A stretch of DNA of 40,344 nt from positions 1 to 40,344 of the forward strand of contig JBNGIO010004048.1 in the NCBI GenBank assembly GCA_049999805.1. Reading direction: 5' to 3'. The stretch is from Folioceros fuciformis. Its lineage: Eukaryota. Position numbers and translations under genes: made by a program. Below, in pieces: positions 15,849 to 39,750 of this stretch. The number at the start of each line of letters is the position of its first letter. Position 1 is the first letter of the stretch. The notes under the pieces were generated by a model, which saw only the letters and a list, made by a program, of their open reading frames with translations, was not told where the DNA came from and did not search any database.

Positions 15849-16387
<539 letters not shown>

Positions 16388-17461
16388 GGCTGCAGCCTGT
16401 GGAAGCGCTAGCCGAGCGAATCAGAAGGCACGACTTCGGGGGAACAAGCCGCGAGCTCGACGTCACGTGGTGCGGGCTCGAAAGACAGGGCACGCAGCTA
16501 TAGACTACACAACTTCTATGCACAAGGATATATAGACCAAACCTAAGTACGTAAACCCGTAAGGTCCCCCCCACTACCGCTAACTGGCCAAGCAGCTAGG
16601 TGCTCCAGTAAGTAACTACTTATTAGGTTCGCATTGATTAACCTTCCATAAAGAATGAAGAAAATAGGGAAAGCCGGGTAGGTCCATGAATTGATAGAAA
16701 TGGAAGGAAACAAGGGAAGCCATGTATCTACACCAGACCTTAAAAGAAAGGTGGGGTTTAAAGTTGGAATATAATATAATATGATATTCTTTATTTAAAT
16801 TATTATTATTTAAAGTATTTTTCTAAAATAATACACTTCACATAGTAATTCTAGTGAGCTCTAAGCTAAGAGTGGTATGCAGCAGCATAGACTATAACAT
16901 CTACTTATCTAGTTTAGTATGAAGACCTTTTTTTTGGAACATTTTTCAACTTCTTTGATAGAAGTAGGATTTTTTTTTCTTGTAGCAGAGAAGACTATGT
17001 TTTGATTCTACCATGGTCACCAACTTTCTCCAAAAATGCAATGTTTGATGCTCACAACAACATAGTAGTAGTCCACACCATCTTTGTGCCTGAACCCATA
17101 CATGGAGAAATTATCAGAAAACCGGGATTATTGGATACTTGACTACGATGGTAAACCACATTGTAATGAAGATCAAGACTAGATGTAACATGGAGATGTT
17201 ATTCCTTACTAACAAGTGAAGCATGAAGTTATTGGTCTTGAAGTGTTTTGAGGTGTGTTATCTCTTTCCATACAAATGTAGGGTTGTACTTCAAAATGTG
17301 TGAAGCATTTGGGGGCGTCATTGAGACACTTATGCGGAGTTAACATCAAAAAGGCTCGAAAGAGAAGGGATTCACAAAAGCAACAACGAGCTAATACTCA
17401 TGTAGACCCACTTGAAGCAGAAACCCACAATACTACTAGTCTTGGAATAGAGCAAGAACAA

Positions 17462-20400
17462 ATGCCGCACAACAAGGTGCTTAACAACTTTGAATTTGAC
17501 TGCTCCATCCATGAATGTGTTTTATTAAATTATTATTATATTTGAAAGCACAGGTAACAGATTTCGATAGTGGCAAGAAGAAGAGCTTTAGAACAGTCCG
17601 AATTCATGTCACAGAAACAAGTGCCCTCCATGCTGCCCAAGCATATGAGTAAGAACAAAAGATGAGAGTTTTGTTTGTTCAAAGTGTTGTGTAGAGAAGT
17701 CAGTCTTGTATTGTACTGTTCTGCCTTCTTCTAATGCTTGCACAAAGAAAGATGTGTGTTGCTAATTAATGAATGAACTCTACTGTTCTTTAATTTGGTG
17801 ACAATTTTTTCAGATTTTGTAGTAATTACTTGAAGACATCGAAATATTCGTTGATAACCTTCTTGCCAGTGAATCTATTTGAACAATTTTGTAGAATGGC
17901 AAATTTGTATTTTCTATTTATAGCTGGTCTTCAATTAATTCCAGGCTTATCACCCACTAGTTGGGGGACCACTATAGCTCCTCTTTCTTTTGTTCTAGCT
18001 TTGAATGCTTTGAAGGAGGGCTATGACGAATTTCGACGACACCGGTCTGACAAAGAAGTAATTTTCTTCGACACATTGATCACATAAAAGCCACAGTATT
18101 CCCTACTAGTTGTATGCCAACATCTCTTAAACATAACTAGTTTAGTACAATCATATCAAGAGAAACAAGCAAGCAATAGAGTCTTGACTCACACAAGTAC
18201 TTCATTTTCCACACCAGATCAATAATCGCAAGGTGAAAGTACTAAGAAATGAAGAGTTTATCAGCATCAAATGGAAGTCTATCATAGTAGGAGATGTTCT
18301 AAAGATCGATATGGACACAGAATTTCCAGCTGACATGGTTTTCATGTCATCTTCTGACCTTCAAGGTGAGCTGAAACTTTTTAGCTTTCTGGGTCTTCAT
18401 GGGTTGCTGATCTCAACAAGACTACTACTACCTTGCCATATCTCACAGGCAAAGACTCTGATGTTGAAATTTAGGTCTTGCTTACATCGAAACAACAAAT
18501 TTGGATGGTGAAACCAACCTTAAAATACGAAATGCCTTCTACACAGGCGAAAGTGGTGATCTTTCTCTTATTATGCTATCAGGCTTGATAATTGAATGTG
18601 AGCAGCCTAATAATCGTCTTTATCAATTTGATGGGTGCGTCCTGCTTCAGGTTAATTGCAGCAGTATTGCAACAATCCCAAGGTTTTTAAGGCTTTTTTT
18701 GCTATGAAAAACCTCTAAGCTATAACTTTTGCAACTTATTTTATTTTATTTTATTTTATTTTTCTATATCATTTAGGATATTTTTTTTTATTACATCGAC
18801 ATTTTGTATTGCAGACACACGGAAAAATCCCACTCGATGTTAGTCAAATATTATTAAGAGGTGCTACATTGAGAAATACCGAGTGGGTTCTTGGCGCTGT
18901 GGTTTTCACTGGCAAAGATACCAAGCTTGTGAGAAATATGGTAGCTGCTCCTCGAAAGGTATGATTATTTATATCATTTAAAAAAAATATTTGCAAGTAT
19001 TTTTTTCCAATAATAATGAAAGTGTGATCTTTTCGTAAACGAAACCCTAAACCCTAAATGAAACAGATTTCCCAATTGGAGCGACATATGAATGTATTAG
19101 TGCCTACATTATTCCTTGTAATGTTCATATTATGTGGTTCTTTATCCTTAGGCCATGACTCTTGGCAAAAGTATCAGGAAAAACAACATCCATACTTGGC
19201 GCTTAAAACATATAAATGGCCTGAATTAAATAATGGATTTGCTGATATTTGTCTTCAATTACTTAGGTGAAATTTAAATATATATATATATATTATTTCA
19301 AAAATTATTTAACACATTATGTTATGAAATTAAGAATAAAAAGTTTTTTGTAGGTTTGTGATACTTCTAAACCAATTCATACCAATCTCCTTATATGTTA
19401 CCTTAGAATTGGTTAAAGTGATGCAGTGTTTCTTCCTTCAAAAAGATATGGAAATGTATTATCCAGAGACAAAAACTTATCCTCAAACGAGGACTTCAAA
19501 TTTAAATGAAGAGTTAGGCCAAGTTCAATATGTCTTGACGGACAAGACGGGAACCTTAACACAAAACGTAATGGCATTCGTTCAATGTTCAATAAATGGT
19601 ATTATCTACGGAAACTCAACAAACGGTAGTGAAGAAACTCAAGCTAGCATAGATCATCCCCACACTGTTCATACAATTTGTCAAGACAAAGAATTGATGA
19701 AGTTGCTTCAAACTTCGGAAGAGCTTGCACAATCAAGCTACGATTGTCGGGCTTGTCAAGCATTTTTCAACCATCTAGCTATATGCCATACGGTGGTGCC
19801 CACAGTTGATAGTGGGAGTTCCGATGTCGGAGAAATCAAGTACCAGGCTGCGTCACCTGATGAAGAAGCATTAGTCCACGTAAGTGTTTCGGGTTTAGTT
19901 GAAGTATACATCGAACAAGTTCGATATGAACTACTAATCTCCTGTTGTCATGTTTCTAATAGGGAGCTGCTATATGCGGATATGCACTTACAAAACGTAT
20001 GCCTGACGAGATAGTAATTAAACGTCAAGTAAACTGATAACTCAGATTTTTGGATGAATCACCATTTGAGTTCGAAATTGAAATCCTTGTTTTTGTAGAT
20101 CTGTAATGGTTTAATGTTTCTTCATTGTCCTTAGGGAGAATCCATAAAACACAACATCTTAGCAGTACTTGAGTTTACAAGTGAAAGAAAACGCATGAGC
20201 ATTATATGTAAAGACAAAAGAGGAAGGTAATGTCGGCATAAATTATTTTATTTATTGTAATCCCAGCATAGTTTTTATGGTAATTTATATTTTACTCTAT
20301 AATTAAAAAAATCATTGGTTTCTTTTTTTTTCTTTGTGATTATGCAGGATAAAACTTTTCTGCAAAGGAGCTGATACTGTTATCTTAAAGAGGTTATCAA

Positions 20401-23400
20401 AAGACCAAGGCTCTGTTGCTGAAGCAAGTCTTCGACATCTAGAAGATTTCGCCAGAGCTGGATATCGGACTTTATGCATTGCTGAGCGCGACGTAAGCGC
20501 ATTAATCTCGTAGATTGATACATTTTTATGCAAGTTGTTTTTGGTGGGAAATTTTCAGTTATTGCAACAAAAAAGGAGCTTAATATGTTGTAAATTTTTA
20601 TTTTGAAGATAAAAAACGAAGAGTATTCAAATTGGGCGTCACATTTTCGAGCTGCTAGTATTTCTCTCGATGATAGAGAACAAAAGGTTGCAGATGCAGC
20701 TGATTCAATCGAACGTGATTTGGTAAAAAACGTATCAAAAGATTGTTGATAATAGAGTTCTGTTATGAACATGGAAAGATTAAGGAACAATACCATTTAA
20801 AGCTAATCAAAGCGTAAAAAAACTATTGTTCAATGCTTTAAGGTTCTGTTGGGAGTTACTGCTGTTGAAGATAAACTTCAAGATGGAGTCCCAGAAACTA
20901 TCACTCTCCTTGCTCGAGCAGGCATCAAAGTGTGGGTATTGATTTACTCTTCATTTCATGCACATACATTCCGATGACTGTAGTTTGGATAACTTAAGTT
21001 GTGACATCTCAGATGCTATGTTCACACTTTAGGGGATGTAGACTTAACAAAGGAGGCATGATAAATCTTTCCTTTTATTTTATTAAAATAATAAAAATAA
21101 TTTATTAGTATTATTGAATGCCCAACTATATTCTAAAATAATGTATGTAGGTTTTAACAGGGGATAAACTAGAAACAGCTGTTTCCATTGGGTTATCATG
21201 TAACCTGCTAGTAGACTCTATGCACTTATTCTTAGTATCCGATAATGTATCACGATCCATTCCTCAAGCACTAGTTAACATGTTAAATGAAGCGAGAGAA
21301 GAAACAGAAGCTAGGATAAAGGCAGGTAATTGATAATTATGATATATTTGATAAGATGCAATAATTTCTAACAAGTTAACTTCTTTCAGTAATCTTGTTA
21401 CGGTGCACTGTGCTTCTATTTGTTCACCCAAAAGCCTCCGTTTCTATAGATTACTGATAAATCTAGCTAGAGAAACTTTGCTCAGACTTTGATACCATAA
21501 GCGGTGTTTTGTTCTCTGGTTTAACAAGTCATAGAAGTTTACTATCAAACATGCAGGTCGAAGACACAAAGAATCAAATATGGCCTTGGTTATTGAGGGC
21601 ACATCTCTTGCTGCTGCACTAGAGGAAGCCCACAAGTTGAAGTTTCTTGAGCTTTGTCAGCATTGCCGAGCAGTTGTTTGTTGCAGGGTATCACCAATTC
21701 AGAAAGCAGAAGTAAGTTGTCCTAAAGTACAAAAGATTGTTCCTTGGATCAAAGTAGGAACAAAACTTGAAGTTGTTCTTCGTGGAAACCATGTCATAGG
21801 TGACAAGGTTGATTAAGGAGCATGCAAAAGCAATAACATTAGCTATAGGAGACGGAGCCAATGATGTAGGAATGATAAAAGCTGCTCATATCGGAGTGGG
21901 TATTAGTGGGCGTGAGGGAATGGCAGCAGTTCTTGCAAGTGACTTCTCTTTTGCTCAATTTCGATATCTATCTAGATTGTTGTTGGTACATGGAAGATGG
22001 TAAGTAGACTTCTCTAAACTTGCTTCATGTTTGTGCTACATCATGTTTATTTATTAAAAAAAATCAAAATAATTTCAATCCTTTCCAGGTCATACAAAAG
22101 AAATAGAGACTTGGTCATGTACGCATTTTACAAAAACTTTGTCAATATGATGGGAAACTTTTTCCTCACTTTTGGATGTGCATATTCAGCACAACCTCTT
22201 TATCCAGCAGCTATGATATCAACCTATAATGTGTGTTGGACATCGCTACCAACCATGGCCTTTGCTGTCTTAGATCAAGATGTAAACCATAAGACTGCTA
22301 TCAATAACCCTAGTTTATATCGAGAGACACAAAGAGATAATCGGAAAAAGTTTTTTAAAAGCATGGGTTATTGGACAATGTGCTCCATATGGCACTCTGT
22401 AGTTGCATTTTTTTTTCCGGCCATTGCTATGTACAATGCTGAGTAAGTGAATAAGCTAATGGCTTTCAACATTTTGATGAACTACTCAATTGTAGATGTA
22501 GCTAATCGCTTGATTAGTTAACGTTACATTGTGTGATTTTCATGTTATTGTGTCATAGGAAGTTGGGCACTTCTGGAGGAATGATGTCAGTTGGAGTATC
22601 CACATACACCATGGCAATTTTTGTGGTGAACATAAAATTGGCAACTCGTTGTCATACTTTTAATTGGATCAATCATACTCTCCTTTGGGGGATATCGTTA
22701 ACAGCATACTTGGTATTTGGGATTGTGGTATCTTGTATGAGAAAGCTCCAATGGATGCCTGACCTGGATGGAGTTTCGCTTGTAACATACAGTAATGCAA
22801 GCTTTTGGCTAACAATATTTTTATCACCAATGGCAGCTTGCTTTCCGGATATTGCTTGGAAAGCATTTAGATTGCAAAGGCACCCTCAAGATCATGAAAT
22901 AATTTGTGAGATGGAGCATGGTTGGAGGTCTGGAATCTTTTGTAAAAGCATGATAGGAAGTGTTGCATCCACACACATCCATGAGCCGATTCAAAGGAAA
23001 TCGACCAAAAAGTATATTAATGCACATGGTGGGATCACAGCACAGTTGGAAGAAGCTATTGGCAACAGGTTGTTGTTTACTGAGAATGCTGAGGCCAAGA
23101 TTAGAATGACTACATTGATAGAATCAACTGATACTACAATAGAGATGGATGACATAAGCCCATTGCCAGCTACTCCTCCGAAAAGGCTATCTCTTGAAGA
23201 TGGTATTACTAAACCACTTCGTCGACGGCTTACTTGGAGACAGTTAGTCCAAGAGGAGGAGCAATTTGAGGATGTACAGCTTGTGCACATGACCCATCCG
23301 GAAATGATAGAAGATCCCCCAGAAGGTTCATCACGAAGAGGTAGCTCTAGCTATGTGGTGACAAGTCATCAAGATTCCAACCCAAGCTCACCATCATCTC

Positions 23401-26376: not shown

Positions 26377-27130
26377 CCTCCCAGAGCGGCATGTGTATTT
26401 GGCCATTCTTTGTGTTCGCACGTGTCTGTTGCTCGATCTCGCACTGCACAGAGGGCGGTATCGATACTTGTCTGTGTCTCAACTTAGTTTCCATGTCCAC
26501 ACTCGAATGCTACCTAGTCTTTGCCGGGACTCATCAATTTGGGATGATCAAAGCTCGAGCATGTTTATATAAGCATCAACTGTCCCTGTCCAAGTCCCGA
26601 CTCCCTTGCTACCACCAGTCTGGACATAAGTGTAACGTGTGGAACAATGTTGTGGGCAAGCCCCACTGTGCGTTGATATTGATGGGCAGTCAGGTGGTAT
26701 ACATGAAATGGAGAGTCCATCAGAAAGTGGTCGGCATCTCAGCTGCAACAACAGGAAAGCCATGAAACTACCTGTTCCGCGTACCGCCTACCTACCTCCG
26801 GAAAAGGAATTTGATCGTGTCACCCTGGTCACATTTTTCAGCTGACAACATGTGATGGCCAAGGCGCCAGTGGCTACGCTTGCGCACCGAATTCGTGGTG
26901 ACAGTACCATTCCAGGGGATAGGTATTACACCAGTCCCGTTGCAACGGGTGTCAGCCACAGCCAGGTCACGACCGCCACTATCTCTGTAAAGTATTTGGG
27001 AAAAGAGAATTGGGAGACTGCGGCAAGCGCAGCGACAAGAGTTGAGAGTCAAGCACTGCAGCAGCAAACTCGACGTCCTTCTCAACTTTATGGGGGGGGT
27101 CCATAGCAAAAGGGAAGGATCCTGTACTCA

Positions 27131-27238
27131 CAGTAAGCCTGGTATATACTGCCGAAAAAGTAGAAGCGGTAAGTCTGGTATATACTGCCTAAAAAGTGCC
27201 AGCAGTAAGTTTGGTATATACTGCCCAAAAAGTACTAG
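27131..27238. repeat. 36-bp tandem repeat, 3 copies
   Basis: c(a/g)gtaag..tggtatatactgcc.aaaaagt...ag units start at 27131, 27167 and 27203. Confidence 0.9.
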
Positions 27239-27501
27239 GTATTCGTACGAGACTACAGGATGCATATCCGCAGATGACAAGGCAGACCTGTCTTTCTTGG
27301 TAGGACATACTTGCTATGCAAACTACTCCTGCAGGCCAGAACTTAGCACCCAGCATTGCGTTAAGCCAGCCTCTAGTGCTTATACTAATAAACATTCCAA
27401 AACGACTTCTTGGGGAAACTGACCTACTTCGGTGCAAAAGAGCTATTTACACTAAAATCGCACCAGCTCCCTGCATGTTCACACATAAGGACATGAAAAG
27501 C

Positions 27502-28406
<905 letters not shown>

Positions 28407-28562
28407 CTACCGCAATCGAACACGAGGAGTCACTCCGGAACGGAACACAGCACGAGCTCTGACGATGAAAAGCGGTTGGACGTGAGAAAGAGGACGCTAG
28501 AGTTCCCCGTATTTCAAATAAAATGTGTGTTTAGAGAGTTATAACTATCCATAAAGTTATTA

Positions 28563-28634
28563 CGGCCAAATGTCTAGTGGTGTGAATCTCCCTTCAAGTT
28601 GAACAGGTTGTGAATTCGATTCTCGCAATGCCCT
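28563..28634 (+). pseudogene. Degenerate tRNA-Pro-like sequence (tRNA pseudogene or SINE head)
   Basis: 72-nt gap-free colinear resemblance to the plant cytosolic tRNA-Pro as I recall it (GGGCATTTGGTCTAGTGGTATGATTCTCGC...AGGTCCCGAGTTCGATTCTCGGAATGCCC). It retains gtctagtggt.tga.tctc and ttcgattctcg.aatgccc. The acceptor and anticodon stems are broken. Confidence 0.65.
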
Positions 28635-28836
28635 TGGTGAGTATGTTCGCCCCATCCTGAGTATGTTCGTTTATCTTCCACACATACATCCAAGCGTCCA
28701 GTTGATGAGGTAGTTGTAGACATACAGTTCATTTAGGTTCTCATGGAGGCCAGCTACCCGACCCCAATGGCGTGGGCATAGGCAATGCCGTGATGGTCCC
28801 TCCTTGAACTCATTTCAGGTGGACGGTACCCGCACG

Positions 28837-31635
28837 ATGGCCACAGCATGGAACCCGGATCTGTTAAGGACCCAACAAATTGGTGTGTGCACAGGGTTGC
28901 TGCGAGGAGCTTCCGCTCACCTTATCTCAGGGAGTCAGCCCCTGGCAAACAACCAATCCGGTACCTACAGGGGCAGCACTGCAAGGAGCCCCGCAGTCCC
29001 GCTTCAGCTAATATCCGTGGGTGGGGACGGATTTTCCAGTGATGCTCGTAGTCAGGAGCAGGAGCACTTGTGGCAACAATTTTTCCTGGACCCTACCGTG
29101 TGGTGGGATAACAGACAATGCAAGACTAGCTACCGAGCTCCTGACTTCCAGCGTAAGGGGTCCGACGAAGTCCTGTGGTTAAACAGCATGCTCAAGCCAG
29201 CTTGGGTTGATGAGCAACTCGTGTCATTGGATACGGAGATGGGCCATGGTGCCTCTCCTACCAAGTCAAGCTCTCGGGATGTGCCTGAGCTTAGGAGGAG
29301 TGCAGGGTCGGGAGTGGGCGTGGTGACGGTGGGAACTGTTAGCTTGTTGTGTGAGCAGGGGAAGCTTTCTGAGGCCGTTGGAGCCCTGGAGTCCCTTGCC
29401 CAGGCAGAGTCCGCCATCCCTCAGTCTCTGTTTTACACAGTGCTGAAACTGTGTACAGCTAGGAAGGATTTGGTTGTAGGTGGACGAGTTCATGAGCTTG
29501 CTGTGAAGTTTGGGTACGAGTCGAGTGCGTACTTGGGGAACCATATCCTGCGCATGTACGCATGTGGAGGGAGGCTACAGGAGGCTATGGATGTGCTCGC
29601 CAGGGTCAGCAAACCAGATGCCTTCATGTGGTCTTCCATAATATCCGCCTACGCTAAGCATGGGCTGCCTGAGGAGGCCGTGCAACTGTACCATAGGATG
29701 CGTAGGTCAGGGGTGAGGGCGGATGCTCACGTCTTTGTAGCTGCCCTCCAAGCCTGTGCGTTGGCTGCCGACTTGGAGTCCGGCAGACAGGTCCACAGTG
29801 ATGTGGTGCAGAGTGGCATTCCTGCTAACTTGTTTGTGGGCAACTGCCTGGTGGACATGTATGCAAAGTGTGGCCAACTGAGAGATGCACGCCGAGTTTT
29901 CGACAGCATGGTCTCCAAGAACGTGGTGACATGTAATGCCCTAATCTCTGGGTATGCGAAGTGTGGCGATCTGGAAGATGCACGCCAGGTTTTTGACAGC
30001 ATGAAAGTGAAGGACGTGGTGACATGGAACGCCTTGATCGCTGGGTATGCGGAGCGAGGGCATGGGCAGGAGGCGCTTGTTGTGTATGGAGAAATGGAGC
30101 AGGAGGGCCTCAGTGTGGCTGACCATGTCACTTTTGCCTGCCTTCTAAAGGCCTGTGCGAGCACGGGTGCCTTGCAGAAGGGCAGGCATCTGCACTCACT
30201 GATTGTGAAAAGAGGACTGCTGGATAACGTACTGGTGGGCAATGGCCTGGTGGACATGTATGCAAAATGTGGCCACCTGAAGGATGCACGCCGGCTTTTC
30301 GACGGCATGGCGGTAAAGAATGTGGTGACTTGTAATGCCCTGATATCTGGGTATGCAAAGTGCGGTGACCTGGAAGAGGCACGCCAGGTTTTCGACAACA
30401 TGGCCACCAAGGATGTGGTGACATGGACTGCACTGATTGCTGGGTACGCACAGCAGGGACTGGGCCAGGATGCGCTTGTCGTGTATGAAGAGATGGAGGC
30501 AGAAGGCCTCCCTTTGGCTAACCAAGTGACCTTCGCTTGCCTTCTGAAGGCCTGTGCAAGCACTGGTGCCTTGCAGAAGGGCAGGCACCTGCACTCACAG
30601 GTTGTGGAAAGAGGTCTGCTGGATAACGCACTGGTGGGGAACTGTCTCGTGGACATGTACGCAAAATGCGGTGCTCTGGAAGATGCACGCCAGGTTCTTG
30701 ACAGCATGAACGCAAAGGATGTGGTGACATGGACCGCCCTGATATCCGGGTACGGTGCTTGTGACGAAGGTCACAAGGCACTATCTTGCTTCGAGGAGAT
30801 GCTTGCCGCCGGCGTTCAGCCCAACGATGCTACTTTCACTTGCCTTTTAGCAGCATGCAGTCACGAGGGACTGGTCCACGAAGGCCGCAAGCACTTCGAC
30901 TCCATGGCTCAAGAGCACGGCATCAAACCTACTCTTGAGCACTACAACTGCATGATCGACCTTCTTGGCCGCGCAGGCCATTTAGATGAGGCAGAGAAGA
31001 TGCTGCACTCCTGCGAGGGCCAGCACAGTGTCGTAGGATTGACGGCTCTGTTGAGTGCCTGCAAGAATCACGGGGACACGAAGAGGGCGATGTGGTGTTT
31101 CGAAACCATCGTCCGGCTGGACCCCCAACAGGCCCCCGCCTATGTCCTCATGGCCAACGCCTATGCAGACGCAGGCCGGTGGACCGATGTAGGCAGGATC
31201 GAAGCTCAGAGAAGGGCAGCAGGAGCTAACAAGAAGCCTGCAGTGGCTACCGTCGAGGTGAACAAGCAGGTGCACACGTTCCTGGTAGGGGAAAGGAGAG
31301 AGGATATTGCCCTTCAGGTAGAGAGCACGAACGCCCGTCTGAAGCAGGAAGGAGGCCACGTACCTCACACCAAGTTGGTGTTGAAGACACTGCGTGAGGA
31401 GGAGAAGGAAGATGCACTTTGCGGCCATGCTGAGAAGCTGGCTCTGGCATTTGGCCTCTTGCACACTCCCAGTGGTACACCTCTGGTGGTAACGAAGAAT
31501 CTGCGCATGTGCAGTGACTGCCACAGTTCCACTTCGATCATGTCAAGGCTCGAGCAGCGAGACATCGTTGTAAGGGATGCGTACCGGGTGCATCGTTTCG
31601 CTGCTGGGACTTGCAGCTGTAAGGGTCGGCCGTGA
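28837..31635 (+). CDS. PLS-class PPR protein, 932 aa, no coding introns: N-terminal PDF (OSB-type) motif, about 16-17 P/L/S/SS motifs, E1-E2 and a DYW:KP domain ending in GRP. Putative organellar U-to-C RNA editing factor
   Basis: PLS triplets (e.g. GNCLVDMYAKCG, DVVTWNALIAGY, VTFACLLKAC); P2-L2-S2 (ACSHEGLV.EG, HYNCMIDLLGRAG); E1/E2; KKPAVATVEV in place of the PG box; CGHAEKLA; KNLRMCSDCH; C-terminus CSCKGRP*. Confidence 0.95.
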   Translation: MATAWNPDLLRTQQIGVCTGLLRGASAHLISGSQPLANNQSGTYRGSTARSPAVPLQLISVGGDGFSSDARSQEQEHLWQQFFLDPTVWWDNRQCKTSYRAPDFQRKGSDEVLWLNSMLKPAWVDEQLVSLDTEMGHGASPTKSSSRDVPELRRSAGSGVGVVTVGTVSLLCEQGKLSEAVGALESLAQAESAIPQSLFYTVLKLCTARKDLVVGGRVHELAVKFGYESSAYLGNHILRMYACGGRLQEAMDVLARVSKPDAFMWSSIISAYAKHGLPEEAVQLYHRMRRSGVRADAHVFVAALQACALAADLESGRQVHSDVVQSGIPANLFVGNCLVDMYAKCGQLRDARRVFDSMVSKNVVTCNALISGYAKCGDLEDARQVFDSMKVKDVVTWNALIAGYAERGHGQEALVVYGEMEQEGLSVADHVTFACLLKACASTGALQKGRHLHSLIVKRGLLDNVLVGNGLVDMYAKCGHLKDARRLFDGMAVKNVVTCNALISGYAKCGDLEEARQVFDNMATKDVVTWTALIAGYAQQGLGQDALVVYEEMEAEGLPLANQVTFACLLKACASTGALQKGRHLHSQVVERGLLDNALVGNCLVDMYAKCGALEDARQVLDSMNAKDVVTWTALISGYGACDEGHKALSCFEEMLAAGVQPNDATFTCLLAACSHEGLVHEGRKHFDSMAQEHGIKPTLEHYNCMIDLLGRAGHLDEAEKMLHSCEGQHSVVGLTALLSACKNHGDTKRAMWCFETIVRLDPQQAPAYVLMANAYADAGRWTDVGRIEAQRRAAGANKKPAVATVEVNKQVHTFLVGERREDIALQVESTNARLKQEGGHVPHTKLVLKTLREEEKEDALCGHAEKLALAFGLLHTPSGTPLVVTKNLRMCSDCHSSTSIMSRLEQRDIVVRDAYRVHRFAAGTCSCKGRP
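29068..29220 (+). other. PDF motif (OSB-family ssDNA-binding module) within the PPR protein N-terminus
   Basis: LWQQFFLDPTVWWDNRQCKTSYRAPDFQRKGSDEVLWLNSMLKPAWVDEQL fits the OSB PDF consensus W..FF..P..WWDNR..K.....PDFKHK.....LWL.....P.WV...L. Confidence 0.85.
29836..30633 (+). repeat. Intragenic tandem duplication of a 399-bp (133-aa) S-SS-P-L PPR module
   Basis: Units start at 29836 and 30235, and the next S motif starts at 30634, giving an exact 399-bp period. FACLLKACASTGALQKGRHLHS and KNVVTCNALISGYAKCGDLE are identical in both copies. Confidence 0.9.
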
Positions 31636-31757
31636 GAACAATGAATAAGTAGTAAGTAGTTCTGTTGTGCTGAATCCTGGAGTCTGGAGCTGACACGCAG
31701 GTAAAAGCCCGGTCGTCCCTAAAGGCTTAAAGATAGGCAGATAAAGGCTTAAAGATA

Positions 31758-31819
31758 GGGCTCGAACCCGGGTCGCTCGGGTGAAAGCCGAGTATCCTAA
31801 CCGTCTAGACTACAACGTA
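31758..31819 (-). pseudogene. 3'-truncated tRNA-Glu(UUC)
   Basis: Minus strand reads TACGTTGTAGTCTAGACGGTTAGGATACTCGGCTTTCACCCGAGCGACCCGGGTTCGAGCCC. The D arm, the anticodon arm (CTCGG-CT TTC AC-CCGAG) and the T loop are intact. The end of the T stem and the 3' acceptor strand (expected ..GGCAACGGA) are absent. Confidence 0.88.
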
Positions 31820-32177
31820 ATCTTCACTGTATCTTGTCGCCACAAAAATCACTCAACCATTTTCACAGGGGTCACATTGCGGAAATAGAAAGAGTCTGGA
31901 GGAAGAAGCGAAGTGGTGGGAGCTGGGAATTTGATGAGCACTTCGGTGTCTGGCAGGTTGGACAAATTCCAGATACAGACAGGAAAGGGGTCAATTAATC
32001 CACCAGGTAACACCACCTGCTGGCGCTGTACTGCAATTCATCCAAGTCGAATTCGCACGTACGGTACCTCCTTCCACGCCCCACTGGCCACGAGGCCTGG
32101 ATTTGTGTACGAAAAAAAATTGAGGACGCTAATCGTGGAGGCACTGGACATCGGAATTCGTCCCGTGTCTTCACGGC

Positions 32178-36547
<4,370 letters not shown>

Positions 36548-37110: not shown

Positions 37111-37317
37111 AGCGGTGCTTGCTTTTAGGGCACCGAGAGGGCCAGACGACGCCGTCTTCGCCATCGCATTGGCTCAGCGGTGGGATCGTCGGTGTTCGGT
37201 GGACTGGAGATATCCTCGGTGCAGCCGTGCACTCTTGGTTGCAGCTCTCCCATTCTGCAGCTTCGGGTGCGGGAGTGTATGAATTCCGGGAGCGTGAGGC
37301 GAGTCCTGAGCGTGGCC

Positions 37318-39750
37318 ATGGCGCCCGCTGCTGCTTCCCTTTCTGCTGCGCGTGGCCTGGGAGCTGTGGCCGCGTCCTTGCCCCTAGCATCGCCGCAGCA
37401 GCAGCAGCAGACGAAGCAGGCGCATGGCGTGGCTCAGGCTAGTGCGGTGCCCGCGCGATCCGCCAGGCAAGCGCACAGCTTGGCTGCCCGGAGCGGGAGG
37501 CCCGCGGGGCCGCTGCAGGCGGTGTCCGGGTCCGGGGCCAGCCTGAAGGCGCTGTTTGGGGGAGCCGCCGGCGGGGCGAGGAGGAACGGCATTCGGCCTG
37601 CGGGAGTGAGGTGCGAGGCTACCGTGGCGGAGCGGGAGGATGCGCCGCCAGCGGCGCAGAAGTTCGAGTACCAGGCGGAAGTGAGCAGACTGCTGAAACT
37701 CATTGTGCACAGTCTGTACAGCCACAAGGAGGTTTTTCTGCGGGAGCTTGTGAGTAATGCGAGTGACGCCTTGGACAAGTTGCGGTTCTTGAGTGTCACT
37801 GACCAGAACCTCCTGGCGGCGAATCCGAACATGGAAATTAGGATAAAGGCGGACCGGGATGCCGGGACGATTACGATTACTGATACTGGTATTGGGATGA
37901 CGAAGGAGGAGCTGCAGGAGAGTCTTGGAACCATTGCGCAAAGTGGGACTGCGAGGTTCCTAAATGCGTTGAAGGAGAGCAAGGACGCGAACACCGGTGA
38001 TAATAATTTGATTGGACAGTTTGGTGTCGGATTCTACTCAGCGTTCCTTGTCGCCGACAGGGTTGTGGTGAGGACGAAGAGCGCCAAGTCGGATAAGCAG
38101 TATGTGTGGGAGGGAGAGGCGGATACCAGCTCGTACACGATTCGAGAGGAGGATGAGGAGGATATGCTCCTCCCCAGGGGTACTGCGGTGACGCTGTATT
38201 TGAAGGATGATGACAAGTTCGAGTACTCAGACTCGACGAGACTAGCTAACCTGGTGAAGAACTACTCGCAGTTTATTTCTTTCCCTATCTACACTTGGCA
38301 GGAGAAGACAAGGCAGGTGGAGGTCGAGGATGAAGGCCCTGTGGAGGAAGGCGCCGAGAAGAAGGAGAAGACGAAGAAGACAGAGAAGTATTTCGAGTGG
38401 GAGATGGGGAACGAGACGAAGCCCATCTGGATGAGGTCCCCTAAGGAAGTACCGAAGGAGGAGTACGACACTTTTTACAAAAACACGTTCAAGGATTTTG
38501 TCGATCCTATGGCGTACACGCACTTCACTACGGAGGGTGAGATTGAGTTCAAGAGTCTGCTGTATATTCCGGGCATGGCACCGTTCGGTGACGAGGCGTA
38601 TAACCAGAAGACGAAGAACATCAGGCTGTATGTGAAGCGAGTGTTCATATCGAACGAGTTTGACGGAGAGTTGTTTCCGCGCTACCTGGGCTTCATCAAG
38701 GGAGTCGTGGACTCCAACGATTTGCCTCTGAATGTTTCTCGAGAACTGCTTCAGGAGAGTCGCATTGTCCGCATCATGAAGAAGCGTTTGGTGAGGAAGG
38801 CATTCGATATGATGGACGATATAGCGAAGCGGGAGAATGGGGAGGATTACAAGAACTTCTGGACGAATTTCGGGAAGAACCTCAAGCTGGGGTGCGTTGA
38901 AGATCAAGGGAACCACAAGAAGATTGCCCCTTTGCTGCGGTTCTTCAGCTCCAAGTCTGGGGAGAATCTTATCAGCTTGGACGGATATATCGGTGTCATG
39001 AAGCCTGACCAGAAGGCTATCTACTACCTGGCTTCTGATTCTATAAAGAGTGCGCAGAGTGCGCCCTTCTTGGAAGCCTTGGACAAGAAGGGGTTTGAAG
39101 TTCTGTTCCTGATTGAGCCAATCGACGAGGTTGCTATCACGAACCTTCAGGAGTACAAGGATAAGAAGTTCGTAGACATCAGTAAGGAGGATTTGGATCT
39201 TGGTGACGTAGAAGATAAGAAGGAGATAGAGAAAGAATACCGTCTCCTCGCTGACTGGATGAAGCAAATCCTCGGGGAGAAGGTGGCCAAGGTGCAGATT
39301 TCTACGCGTCTCAGCTCTGCGCCGTGTGTTCTGGTGTCTGGCAAGTTTGGTTGGTCCGCCAACATGGAAAGGATCATGAAGGCTCAAGCTTTGGGAGACA
39401 CATCTACCTTGGAGTTCATGAAGGGAAGGAGGATCCTTGAAATCAACCCTGATCATCCCATCATCAAGGATCTGAACGTCGCCTGCAAGGATACGCCCAG
39501 GAATGACAGAGTGAGGGGACTCGTGGATCTGCTGTACGAAACCTCTCTGCTATCTTGTGGTTTCACCCCAGAGAATCCGGCAGATTTTGGAACCAAGATT
39601 TTTGAGCTGATGGGGTCGGTCATTGGCAAACAAGAGGCGGGCGTAGTAGAAGAGTATTCCGAGGAGCCTCGTGCTGCCGCTGCCGAAGGTGCGGCAGAGG
39701 TTGTGGAGCCGTCCGAGGTGAGGACGGACAACGATCCATGGAAGAGCTAG
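37318..39750 (+). CDS. HSP90C: Plastid HSP90 (HSP90C/HSP90-5-like), 810 aa, intronless CDS
   Basis: Ala/Ser/Arg-rich transit peptide ending in [88 protein letters not shown]. The C-terminus is [11 protein letters not shown] (DPW motif of plastid HSP90), not MEEVD or KDEL. Confidence 0.95.

Follow-up and report, generated by a model that had tools for sequence, protein, structure and literature searches.

Uridine-to-cytidine (U-to-C) conversion is the one pyrimidine transition for which we know of no biochemically characterised natural enzyme, consensus-designed DYW:KP domains alone having been tested. The window, i.e. the whole analysed stretch of 40,344 nucleotides (nt), is a contig of Folioceros fuciformis (GenBank assembly GCA_049999805.1, contig JBNGIO010004048.1, positions 1 to 40,344 of the forward strand) and carries a long open reading frame (ORF) for a pentatricopeptide repeat (PPR) protein. 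At the C-terminus of this protein an initial annotation of the DNA had seen a DYW:KP domain ending in GRP, and had proposed an intact native reverse, i.e. U-to-C, editor. On the evidence of its sequence, the domain is classed here as DYW:KP, not DYW:PG, within the GRP subgroup of KP, and the gene as a further member of this known class. Very probably, the gene is intact and intronless, belongs to the nuclear genome and encodes a PLS-PPR RNA editing factor targeted to an organelle, with the possibility of an upstream exon. The native factor most likely edits U to C at a single organelle site, a direction in vivo that we infer.

Class of the C-terminal domain

The translated C-terminus shows, in this order, KKPAVATVEV, HTFLVGERRED, HAEKLA, KNLRM-CSDCH and HRF...CSC-K-GRP, followed by the stop codon. 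The initial annotation had described KKPAVATVEV at 31231 in place of the PG box, a segment after HTFLVGE without D.SHP, and HAEKLA, CSDCH and a GRP end; all are present in a single frame, with the coordinates of Table 1, and the D.SHP/xHP segment is missing after HTFLVGERRED. Position 31231 corresponds to the first K of KKPAVATVEV, while the alignment places the start of the domain proper at the K of KP, residue 800.

With residues 790-932 as the search query, 101 of 373 candidates passed the threshold of E<=0.001. The query and 100 of the 101 matches were compared, P0102 being dropped as it is without the HxE...CxxC signature, and the reference rows of these 101 DYW domains were classed as KP or PG by their HxE residue. 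The HAE set (36 rows, query included) has mostly a KP start, 132-133 residues and no DYW end, and its terminal triplets are GRP in 5 rows, DRH in 11 and others in the remainder. The HSE set (65 rows) has a PG.S start, mostly 136 residues, and a DYW or DFW end in nearly all rows. An exact KP start is found in 25/36 HAE rows, the query among them, versus 1/65 HSE rows. Domain positions 3 and 5 are both A in the query and in 31/35 KP rows, the PG rows having G (59/65) and S (63/65), and position 66 is A in the query and in 35/35 other KP rows, and S in 65/65 PG rows; within the HxE(x)nCxxC signature, DYW:KP is marked at this position by alanine or cysteine in place of serine. A small deletion of 3-4 residues taking out xHP is reported as a hallmark of DYW:KP (PMC9478123, PMC11713852); the present domain has 133 residues versus 136 in most PG rows, and its VGE-to-HxE stretch 46 versus 49.

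Six columns tell the two classes apart, each class having its own residue there in at least 70% of its rows, and the query is KP-like at five of them (A3, A5, A66, L84 and V119); the sixth, position 85, counts against the assignment, being V in the query, L in the KP consensus and R in the PG consensus. The residues common to both classes were read from a 41-row alignment of KP and PG proteins (A1), among whose invariant columns are H99, E101, K122, C127, C130 and H131. Its invariant residues, i.e. the His and Glu of HxE, Lys88, CxxC-H, a later His and both Cys of CSC, are all kept by the query.

Profile hidden Markov models (HMMs) of the two classes, which we built from the search matches with the query left out, scored the domain at 207.9 bits for KP versus 146.8 bits for PG. 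A GRP-only profile (4 sequences) gave 228.6 bits versus 203.5 for the other KP rows (31 sequences). A maximum-likelihood tree was computed with IQ-TREE from the 101 rows and 136 columns by a quick search, with the Shimodaira-Hasegawa-like approximate likelihood ratio test (SH-aLRT) as its only support value. The query falls inside a 5-row clade in which every member ends in GRP (SH-aLRT 96), nested in a 37-row clade (SH-aLRT 99) composed of all 36 HAE rows and P0059, a single HSE row with a DLL end. Clustering with canonical DYW:PG domains, named in the initial annotation as a finding that would speak against its proposal, was not seen in this tree. The reading as a canonical DYW:PG domain was rejected for a PG profile score 61 bits below that for KP and for the position of the domain in the tree. 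A fern- or lycophyte-type KP was also set aside: both named fern rows, the Adiantum KP rows P0027 and P0046, are placed by the tree outside the 32-row clade that contains the GRP and DRH rows. The DYW:KP assignment of the initial annotation thus held by motifs, HMMs, tree and discriminating columns.

The G, R and P of the C-terminal triplet are common to the query and 4/4 other GRP rows. At position 131 the query has G, and D is found in 28/31 other KP rows and 64/65 PG rows; at position 101 it has S, the four other GRP rows having T, E, E and Q, and K is found in 31/31 other KP and 59/65 PG rows. According to PMC9478123, GRP proteins have lost an aspartate-lysine hydrogen bond. Columns 101 and 131 would be this lost pair, if our column 101 is equated with K103 of that paper.

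Predicted fold of the domain

An AlphaFold2 model of E2 plus DYW (167 residues) was obtained with a mean predicted local distance difference test score (pLDDT) of 91.4 and a predicted template modelling score (pTM) of 0.82. Among the Foldseek matches of this model is 9kfx_A, with a TM score of 0.87 and a root-mean-square deviation (rmsd) of 1.9 over 166 columns. It is accompanied by the OTP86 chains 7o4e and 7o4f at E values of about 1e-10 (7o4f_A 1.6e-10), by DYW1 7w86 (rmsd 1.4 over 111 columns) and, further down the list, by more distant cytidine deaminases; no KP-type solved structure is among the Foldseek matches of the model. The same proteins were matched in the PDB by sequence: the synthetic PPR-DYW 9kfx at 4e-47, DYW1 7w86 at 6e-29 and OTP86 7o4e at 3.1e-28. 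The predicted fold of the domain matches that of solved DYW domains and is deaminase-like.

Integrity of the gene

The ORF comprises 932 codons and a TGA stop, with no stop or frameshift inside its translation. The frame runs from stop to stop between 28720 and 31635, and the first ATG is the one taken here as the start (Table 1). Pfam recognises in the 932 residues the PPR family at 1.1e-92, E_motif at 1e-12 (residues 745-807) and DYW_deaminase PF14432 at 1.2e-33 (residues 840-930). These scores lie far past chance, which argues that the domain is not a chance motif match. No other PPR reading frame of at least 150 residues is found in the window. A pseudogene was rejected in view of the open frame and of a ratio of nonsynonymous to synonymous substitution rates (dN/dS) of 0.18 for a duplicated block of the gene. 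The intactness claimed by the initial annotation is therefore borne out, the frame being open and the catalytic residues kept; the reverse activity claimed with it is a prediction.

The PPR protein is presumably targeted to an organelle. Its N-terminus resembles a targeting peptide in being acid-poor and rich in Ser, Thr, Ala and Gly, residues 1-70 containing 3 acidic, 4 basic, 14 Ser/Thr and 17 Ala/Gly residues.

Table 1 Features of the PPR-DYW:KP gene (positions in the window)
Feature	Position	Strand	Evidence
Complete predicted single-exon coding sequence, PLS-class PPR protein with DYW:KP (GRP) domain	28837..31635	+	ORF list, translation, Pfam
N-terminal ~69 residues, putative organelle targeting peptide	28837..29043	+	composition
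OSB-type PDF motif WWDNR...PDF...LW, one copy, ahead of the PPR tract	29044..29241	+	phmmer, 66 residues
PPR tract, 17 motifs: P1-L1-S1-P1-L1-S1-SS-P1-L1-S1-SS-P1-L1-S1-P2-L2-S2	29317..31029	+	motif table, Pfam PPR
Tandem duplication of the S1-SS-P1-L1 block, 2 x 399 nt (29830-30228, 30229-30627)	29830..30627	+	repeat search
PPR-like motifs E1 (31030-31131) and E2 (31132-31233)	31030..31233	+	Pfam E_motif, residues 745-807; offsets
DYW:KP deaminase-like domain, GRP subgroup, 133 residues	31234..31632	+	motifs, HMMs, tree, fold model
HAE: zinc-ligand His, class-specific Ala, catalytic Glu (domain positions 65-67)	31426..31434	+	sequence, alignment A1
Lys88, lysine of KNLRM	31495..31497	+	invariant column K122 of A1; role from PMC11845758, PMC11713852
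CSDCH: CxxC zinc ligands and next His	31510..31524	+	C127, C130 and H131 invariant in A1
C-terminal GRP (31624-31632) and TGA stop (31633-31635)	31624..31635	+	sequence

PPR tract, block duplication and predicted target

From residue 161 to the DYW domain there are 19 PPR-like motifs, E1 and E2 included, with lengths of 35/35/31 ... 35/36/32/34/34. A repeat search detected within the tract 300 nt at 78% identity with a spacing of 399 nt. The whole 399-nt blocks are identical at 324/399 nt and 106/133 residues, with dS 0.67, dN 0.12 and dN/dS 0.176; the duplication is therefore old, and both copies have been kept under protein-level constraint since. The PPR tract has in this way grown by duplication of a four-motif block. 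The code residues are NN, ND, ND and AN in block 1 and NN, ND, TN and AN in block 2, and the predicted base differs between the blocks in the P1 motif only (ND to TN).

In the PPR code, an Asn at the fifth position specifies a pyrimidine and a Ser or Thr a purine, the last residue specifying U or G when Asp and C or A when Asn, and editing takes place four nucleotides 3' of the base that S2 aligns with (PMC12733224). We read the target of the present protein from the third motif of the tract onwards, taking the fifth and the last residue of each P and S motif and leaving E1 and E2 aside. The combination NS was read as C, which we take to be its meaning, instead of as a mere pyrimidine. The readout, U(-18) G(-17). 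C(-15) U(-14) U(-13). C(-11) U(-10) A(-9). U(-7) A(-6). Y(-4), gives 5'-UGnCUUnCUAnUAnY-nnn-U as the predicted cis-element. We estimate that the P and S motifs contribute about 20 bits, so that the element would occur by chance less than once in some 0.8 Mb.

Comparison with known proteins

PMC9478123 reports two variants of hornwort DYW:KP domains, DRH and GRP, and cites Gerke et al. 2020 and Gutmann et al. 2020 for the hornwort GRP-type PPR-DYW:KP proteins; for the present gene, too, a hornwort origin is presumed. The GRP type is represented in our comparison by P0002, P0004, P0005 and P0014. The present protein shares with them the KPA[V/M]A start, VHTF, HAE, Lys88, KNLRM-CxDCH, the GRP end, the length of 133 residues and the loss of the Lys101/Asp131 pair, but it ends in CKGRP where they end in CGGRP. 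With P0002, it is collinear across the whole protein, N-terminal PDF motif included; unlike P0002, which has full P-L-S triplets in the middle of the tract, it has S1-SS blocks there. P0002 was not retained as a strict orthologue, as the architecture is alike but tract structure and code residues differ.

The designers KP2 and KP3 belong to the GRP subgroup by the definition of PMC9478123, as does the present domain, and have in common with it HAE, CxxC and Lys88. They are consensus domains placed on a synthetic (P1-L1-S1)3 tract that targets rpoA (PMC9478123), whereas the present protein occurs in nature, has a 17-motif tract of its own and carries an N-terminal PDF motif. With the DYW:PG C-to-U factors OTP86, DYW1 and the synthetic 9kfx it shares fold, zinc ligands and the PLS-E1-E2-DYW architecture. 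It differs from them in having KPA.A for PG.S, a segment 3 residues shorter and without xHP, Ala66 for Ser, Val119 for Phe and GRP for DYW.

Proposed activity

In the mechanism that we propose, each motif of the PPR tract would recognise one base, the whole tract binding about 17-20 nt of an RNA from the plastid or the mitochondrion, and the nucleotide 4 positions 3' of the S2-read base would thereby come to lie in the active site. Conversion of uridine to cytidine would then be carried out by the zinc centre (His65, Cys93 and Cys96), Glu67 and Lys88. By the model for designer KPs, the lysine would attack C4 of the uracil to give a Schiff-base RNA-protein intermediate (PMC11332814); in plants, this intermediate would be resolved to free cytidine.

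The published activity of the class is consistent with such a reaction. As reported in PMC9478123, the GRP-based designers KP2 and KP3 edited U to C in E. coli at ~26% and ~22%, respectively, with no C-to-U editing, in agreement with the initial annotation, which had stated that designer proteins with such domains have this activity; HAA and AxxA mutants of the designers were dead (PMC9478123). Across land plants, the DYW:KP class correlates with U-to-C editing (PMC9478123; PMC13386178, 364 genomes). Lys88 is described as essential for U-to-C editing, its removal making the designers C-to-U editors (PMC11845758, PMC11713852), and as common to PG domains too, so that it is required but not discriminating (PMC11845758).

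Several points weigh against taking the gene for a native U-to-C editor of a definable site. According to PMC11845758, the activity of natural KP proteins is not known, and our literature search showed no later paper assaying a natural DYW:KP protein. The closest relative found, P0002, is just 54% identical over the full length and 73% on the DYW part. Read from the alignment, P0002 differs at the code residues of the P2 motif, so that no conserved target can be argued. The predicted cis-element depends on motif boundaries set by hand from the usual lengths instead of by a motif HMM, and the L motifs were left unread. Designers stall in bacteria at an RNA-protein crosslink (PMC11332814). The designer KP6, finally, edits in both directions in human cells and from C to U in vitro (PMC11845758, PMC11332814), so that the direction of the reaction does not follow from the class features.

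With this dual activity of KP6 comes the alternative that the native protein is, in spite of its KP/GRP features, a C-to-U deaminase or a dual C-to-U/U-to-C enzyme in vivo. Single substitutions are reported to shift the balance between the two activities (PMC11845758, PMC11332814), and the zinc site and the Glu required for deamination are intact in the query. We nevertheless regard it as unlikely, given the outcome with KP2 and KP3 in E. coli, and K88A substitution in these two gained less C-to-U activity than in KP6, which the authors ascribe to a better U-to-C optimisation (PMC11845758); the query, for its part, keeps both Lys88 and Ala66.

The distance to P0002 would also suit a silent or decaying paralogue of a large PPR family, intact by chance, unexpressed and with no current target. 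PLS families of hornworts, lycophytes and some mosses are reported to number hundreds to thousands of members, many of them dispersed intronless duplicates (PMC13386178). Against this stand a frame open over 2.8 kb, the retention of all invariant catalytic columns, the dN/dS of the duplicated block and the confident fold model, and we hold such a paralogue to be quite improbable.

As a U-to-C editor, this intact GRP-type gene, which keeps every catalytic residue and has a PPR code that can be read, would be a candidate natural enzyme on a natural target. The value for programmable RNA editing that the initial annotation had attached to it was somewhat generous: the class to which the gene belongs is large and has been well characterised in the literature, and many such genes are expected per hornwort genome, which limits the value of any one of them. 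The fusion to a PDF motif and the block duplication with its ND-to-TN change may matter more to specialists than the call of the domain.

N-terminal OSB-type PDF motif

Between the putative targeting peptide and the PPR tract, residues 71-135 (WWDNR...PDF...LW) match a motif of the organellar single-stranded DNA binding (OSB) proteins. A full-library phmmer search with 66 residues returned 557 representative proteins at E<=1e-3, 123 of them at E<=1e-10 and 17 at E<=1e-30, with at least two copies of the motif in most matches. Two matches bear OSB names: P0155, protein OSB1, mitochondrial-like, of Populus nigra (7.4e-18), and P0145, organellar single-stranded DNA binding protein 3 (OSB3) of Euphorbia peplus (9.5e-19). 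When 20 phmmer matches were scanned with Pfam, four had a single-stranded DNA-binding (SSB) domain followed by motif copies and seven were PPR proteins; one was a kinesin, one had weak unrelated matches only, and seven matched no family. The PDF motif is described as about 50 residues long, present in 1-3 copies after an oligonucleotide/oligosaccharide-binding (OB) fold, and sufficient for the single-stranded DNA binding of AtOSB1 (PMC6963530). The N-terminal 66 residues thus match the repeated C-terminal motif of OSB1-like and OSB3 proteins, Pro-Asp-Phe included, and are predicted to bind nucleic acid. Unlike OSB proteins, the present one has no OB/SSB domain, and its single motif is fused, at the N-terminus, to a PPR editing factor.

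PPR proteins with 1-3 N-terminal PDF copies account for 7 of the best 150 phmmer matches, and three of these seven are named, from Adiantum, Selaginella and Diphasiastrum. Among the 101 DYW-search matches the motif was found in three, P0002 and P0005 (both GRP) and P0013 (DRH), a count from which N-termini may be missing, as many of these proteins come from short contigs. A literature search on PDF motif, OSB1 and pentatricopeptide showed no paper tying the PDF motif to PPR proteins.

A second predicted nucleic-acid-binding element would also fit a protein whose main role is to bind or crosslink RNA in a sequence-specific manner, for stabilisation or translational control, and not to edit it with turnover. 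Designer KPs remain covalently linked to RNA in bacteria and may be suicide enzymes (PMC11332814). In the fern Ceratopteris, however, RNAs edited in planta are reported to be free and not crosslinked (PMC11332814), and the correlation of the class with U-to-C editing across land plants is a further argument for editing; a role mainly in binding is, in our view, highly improbable.

For a native U-to-C editor, the PDF motif may be a working part and not a passenger, an idea to which we would give only a slim chance. As a single-strand clamp, the motif could tether the factor to the nucleoid or to nascent transcripts; alternatively, it could aid the release of covalently bound RNA. If true, this would explain why consensus designs, which are without native N-termini, stall at the crosslink in bacteria, and the natural protein would be a better template for a turnover U-to-C editor.

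Surroundings of the gene in the window

The window is plant nuclear DNA. By Pfam it contains genes for MED14, a TrkH/HKT-type transporter and, on the minus strand, ribosomal protein S30, together with the C-terminal domain of a phospholipid-translocating P-type ATPase. The PPR gene is immediately preceded by a divergently oriented histone H3 gene with at least one intron (27502-28397, minus strand), whose C-terminal exon matches Pfam Histone at 9.7e-24.

Just 3' of the PPR stop codon, at about 31720-31810, a likeness to the anticodon and T arms of a tRNA can be seen by eye on the minus strand, with an incomplete acceptor stem, and an 18-nt direct repeat, TAAAGGCTTAAAGATAGG, adjoins this stretch. 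A tRNA gene was not called here, as ARAGORN found no tRNA in the window and Rfam gave nothing at E<=0.01 in 27000-33000; the stretch may be the remnant of a tRNA-derived element.

Further downstream, an uninterrupted frame of 873 codons (37129-39750, plus strand) matches HSP90 at 8.1e-186 in Pfam and has a long N-terminal extension rich in Ala, Ser and Gln; it looks like an intronless gene for an organelle-type HSP90. The G+C content is 35-41% in 16000-22000 versus 47-57% elsewhere, and this region of low G+C coincides with the intron-rich part of the P-type ATPase gene.

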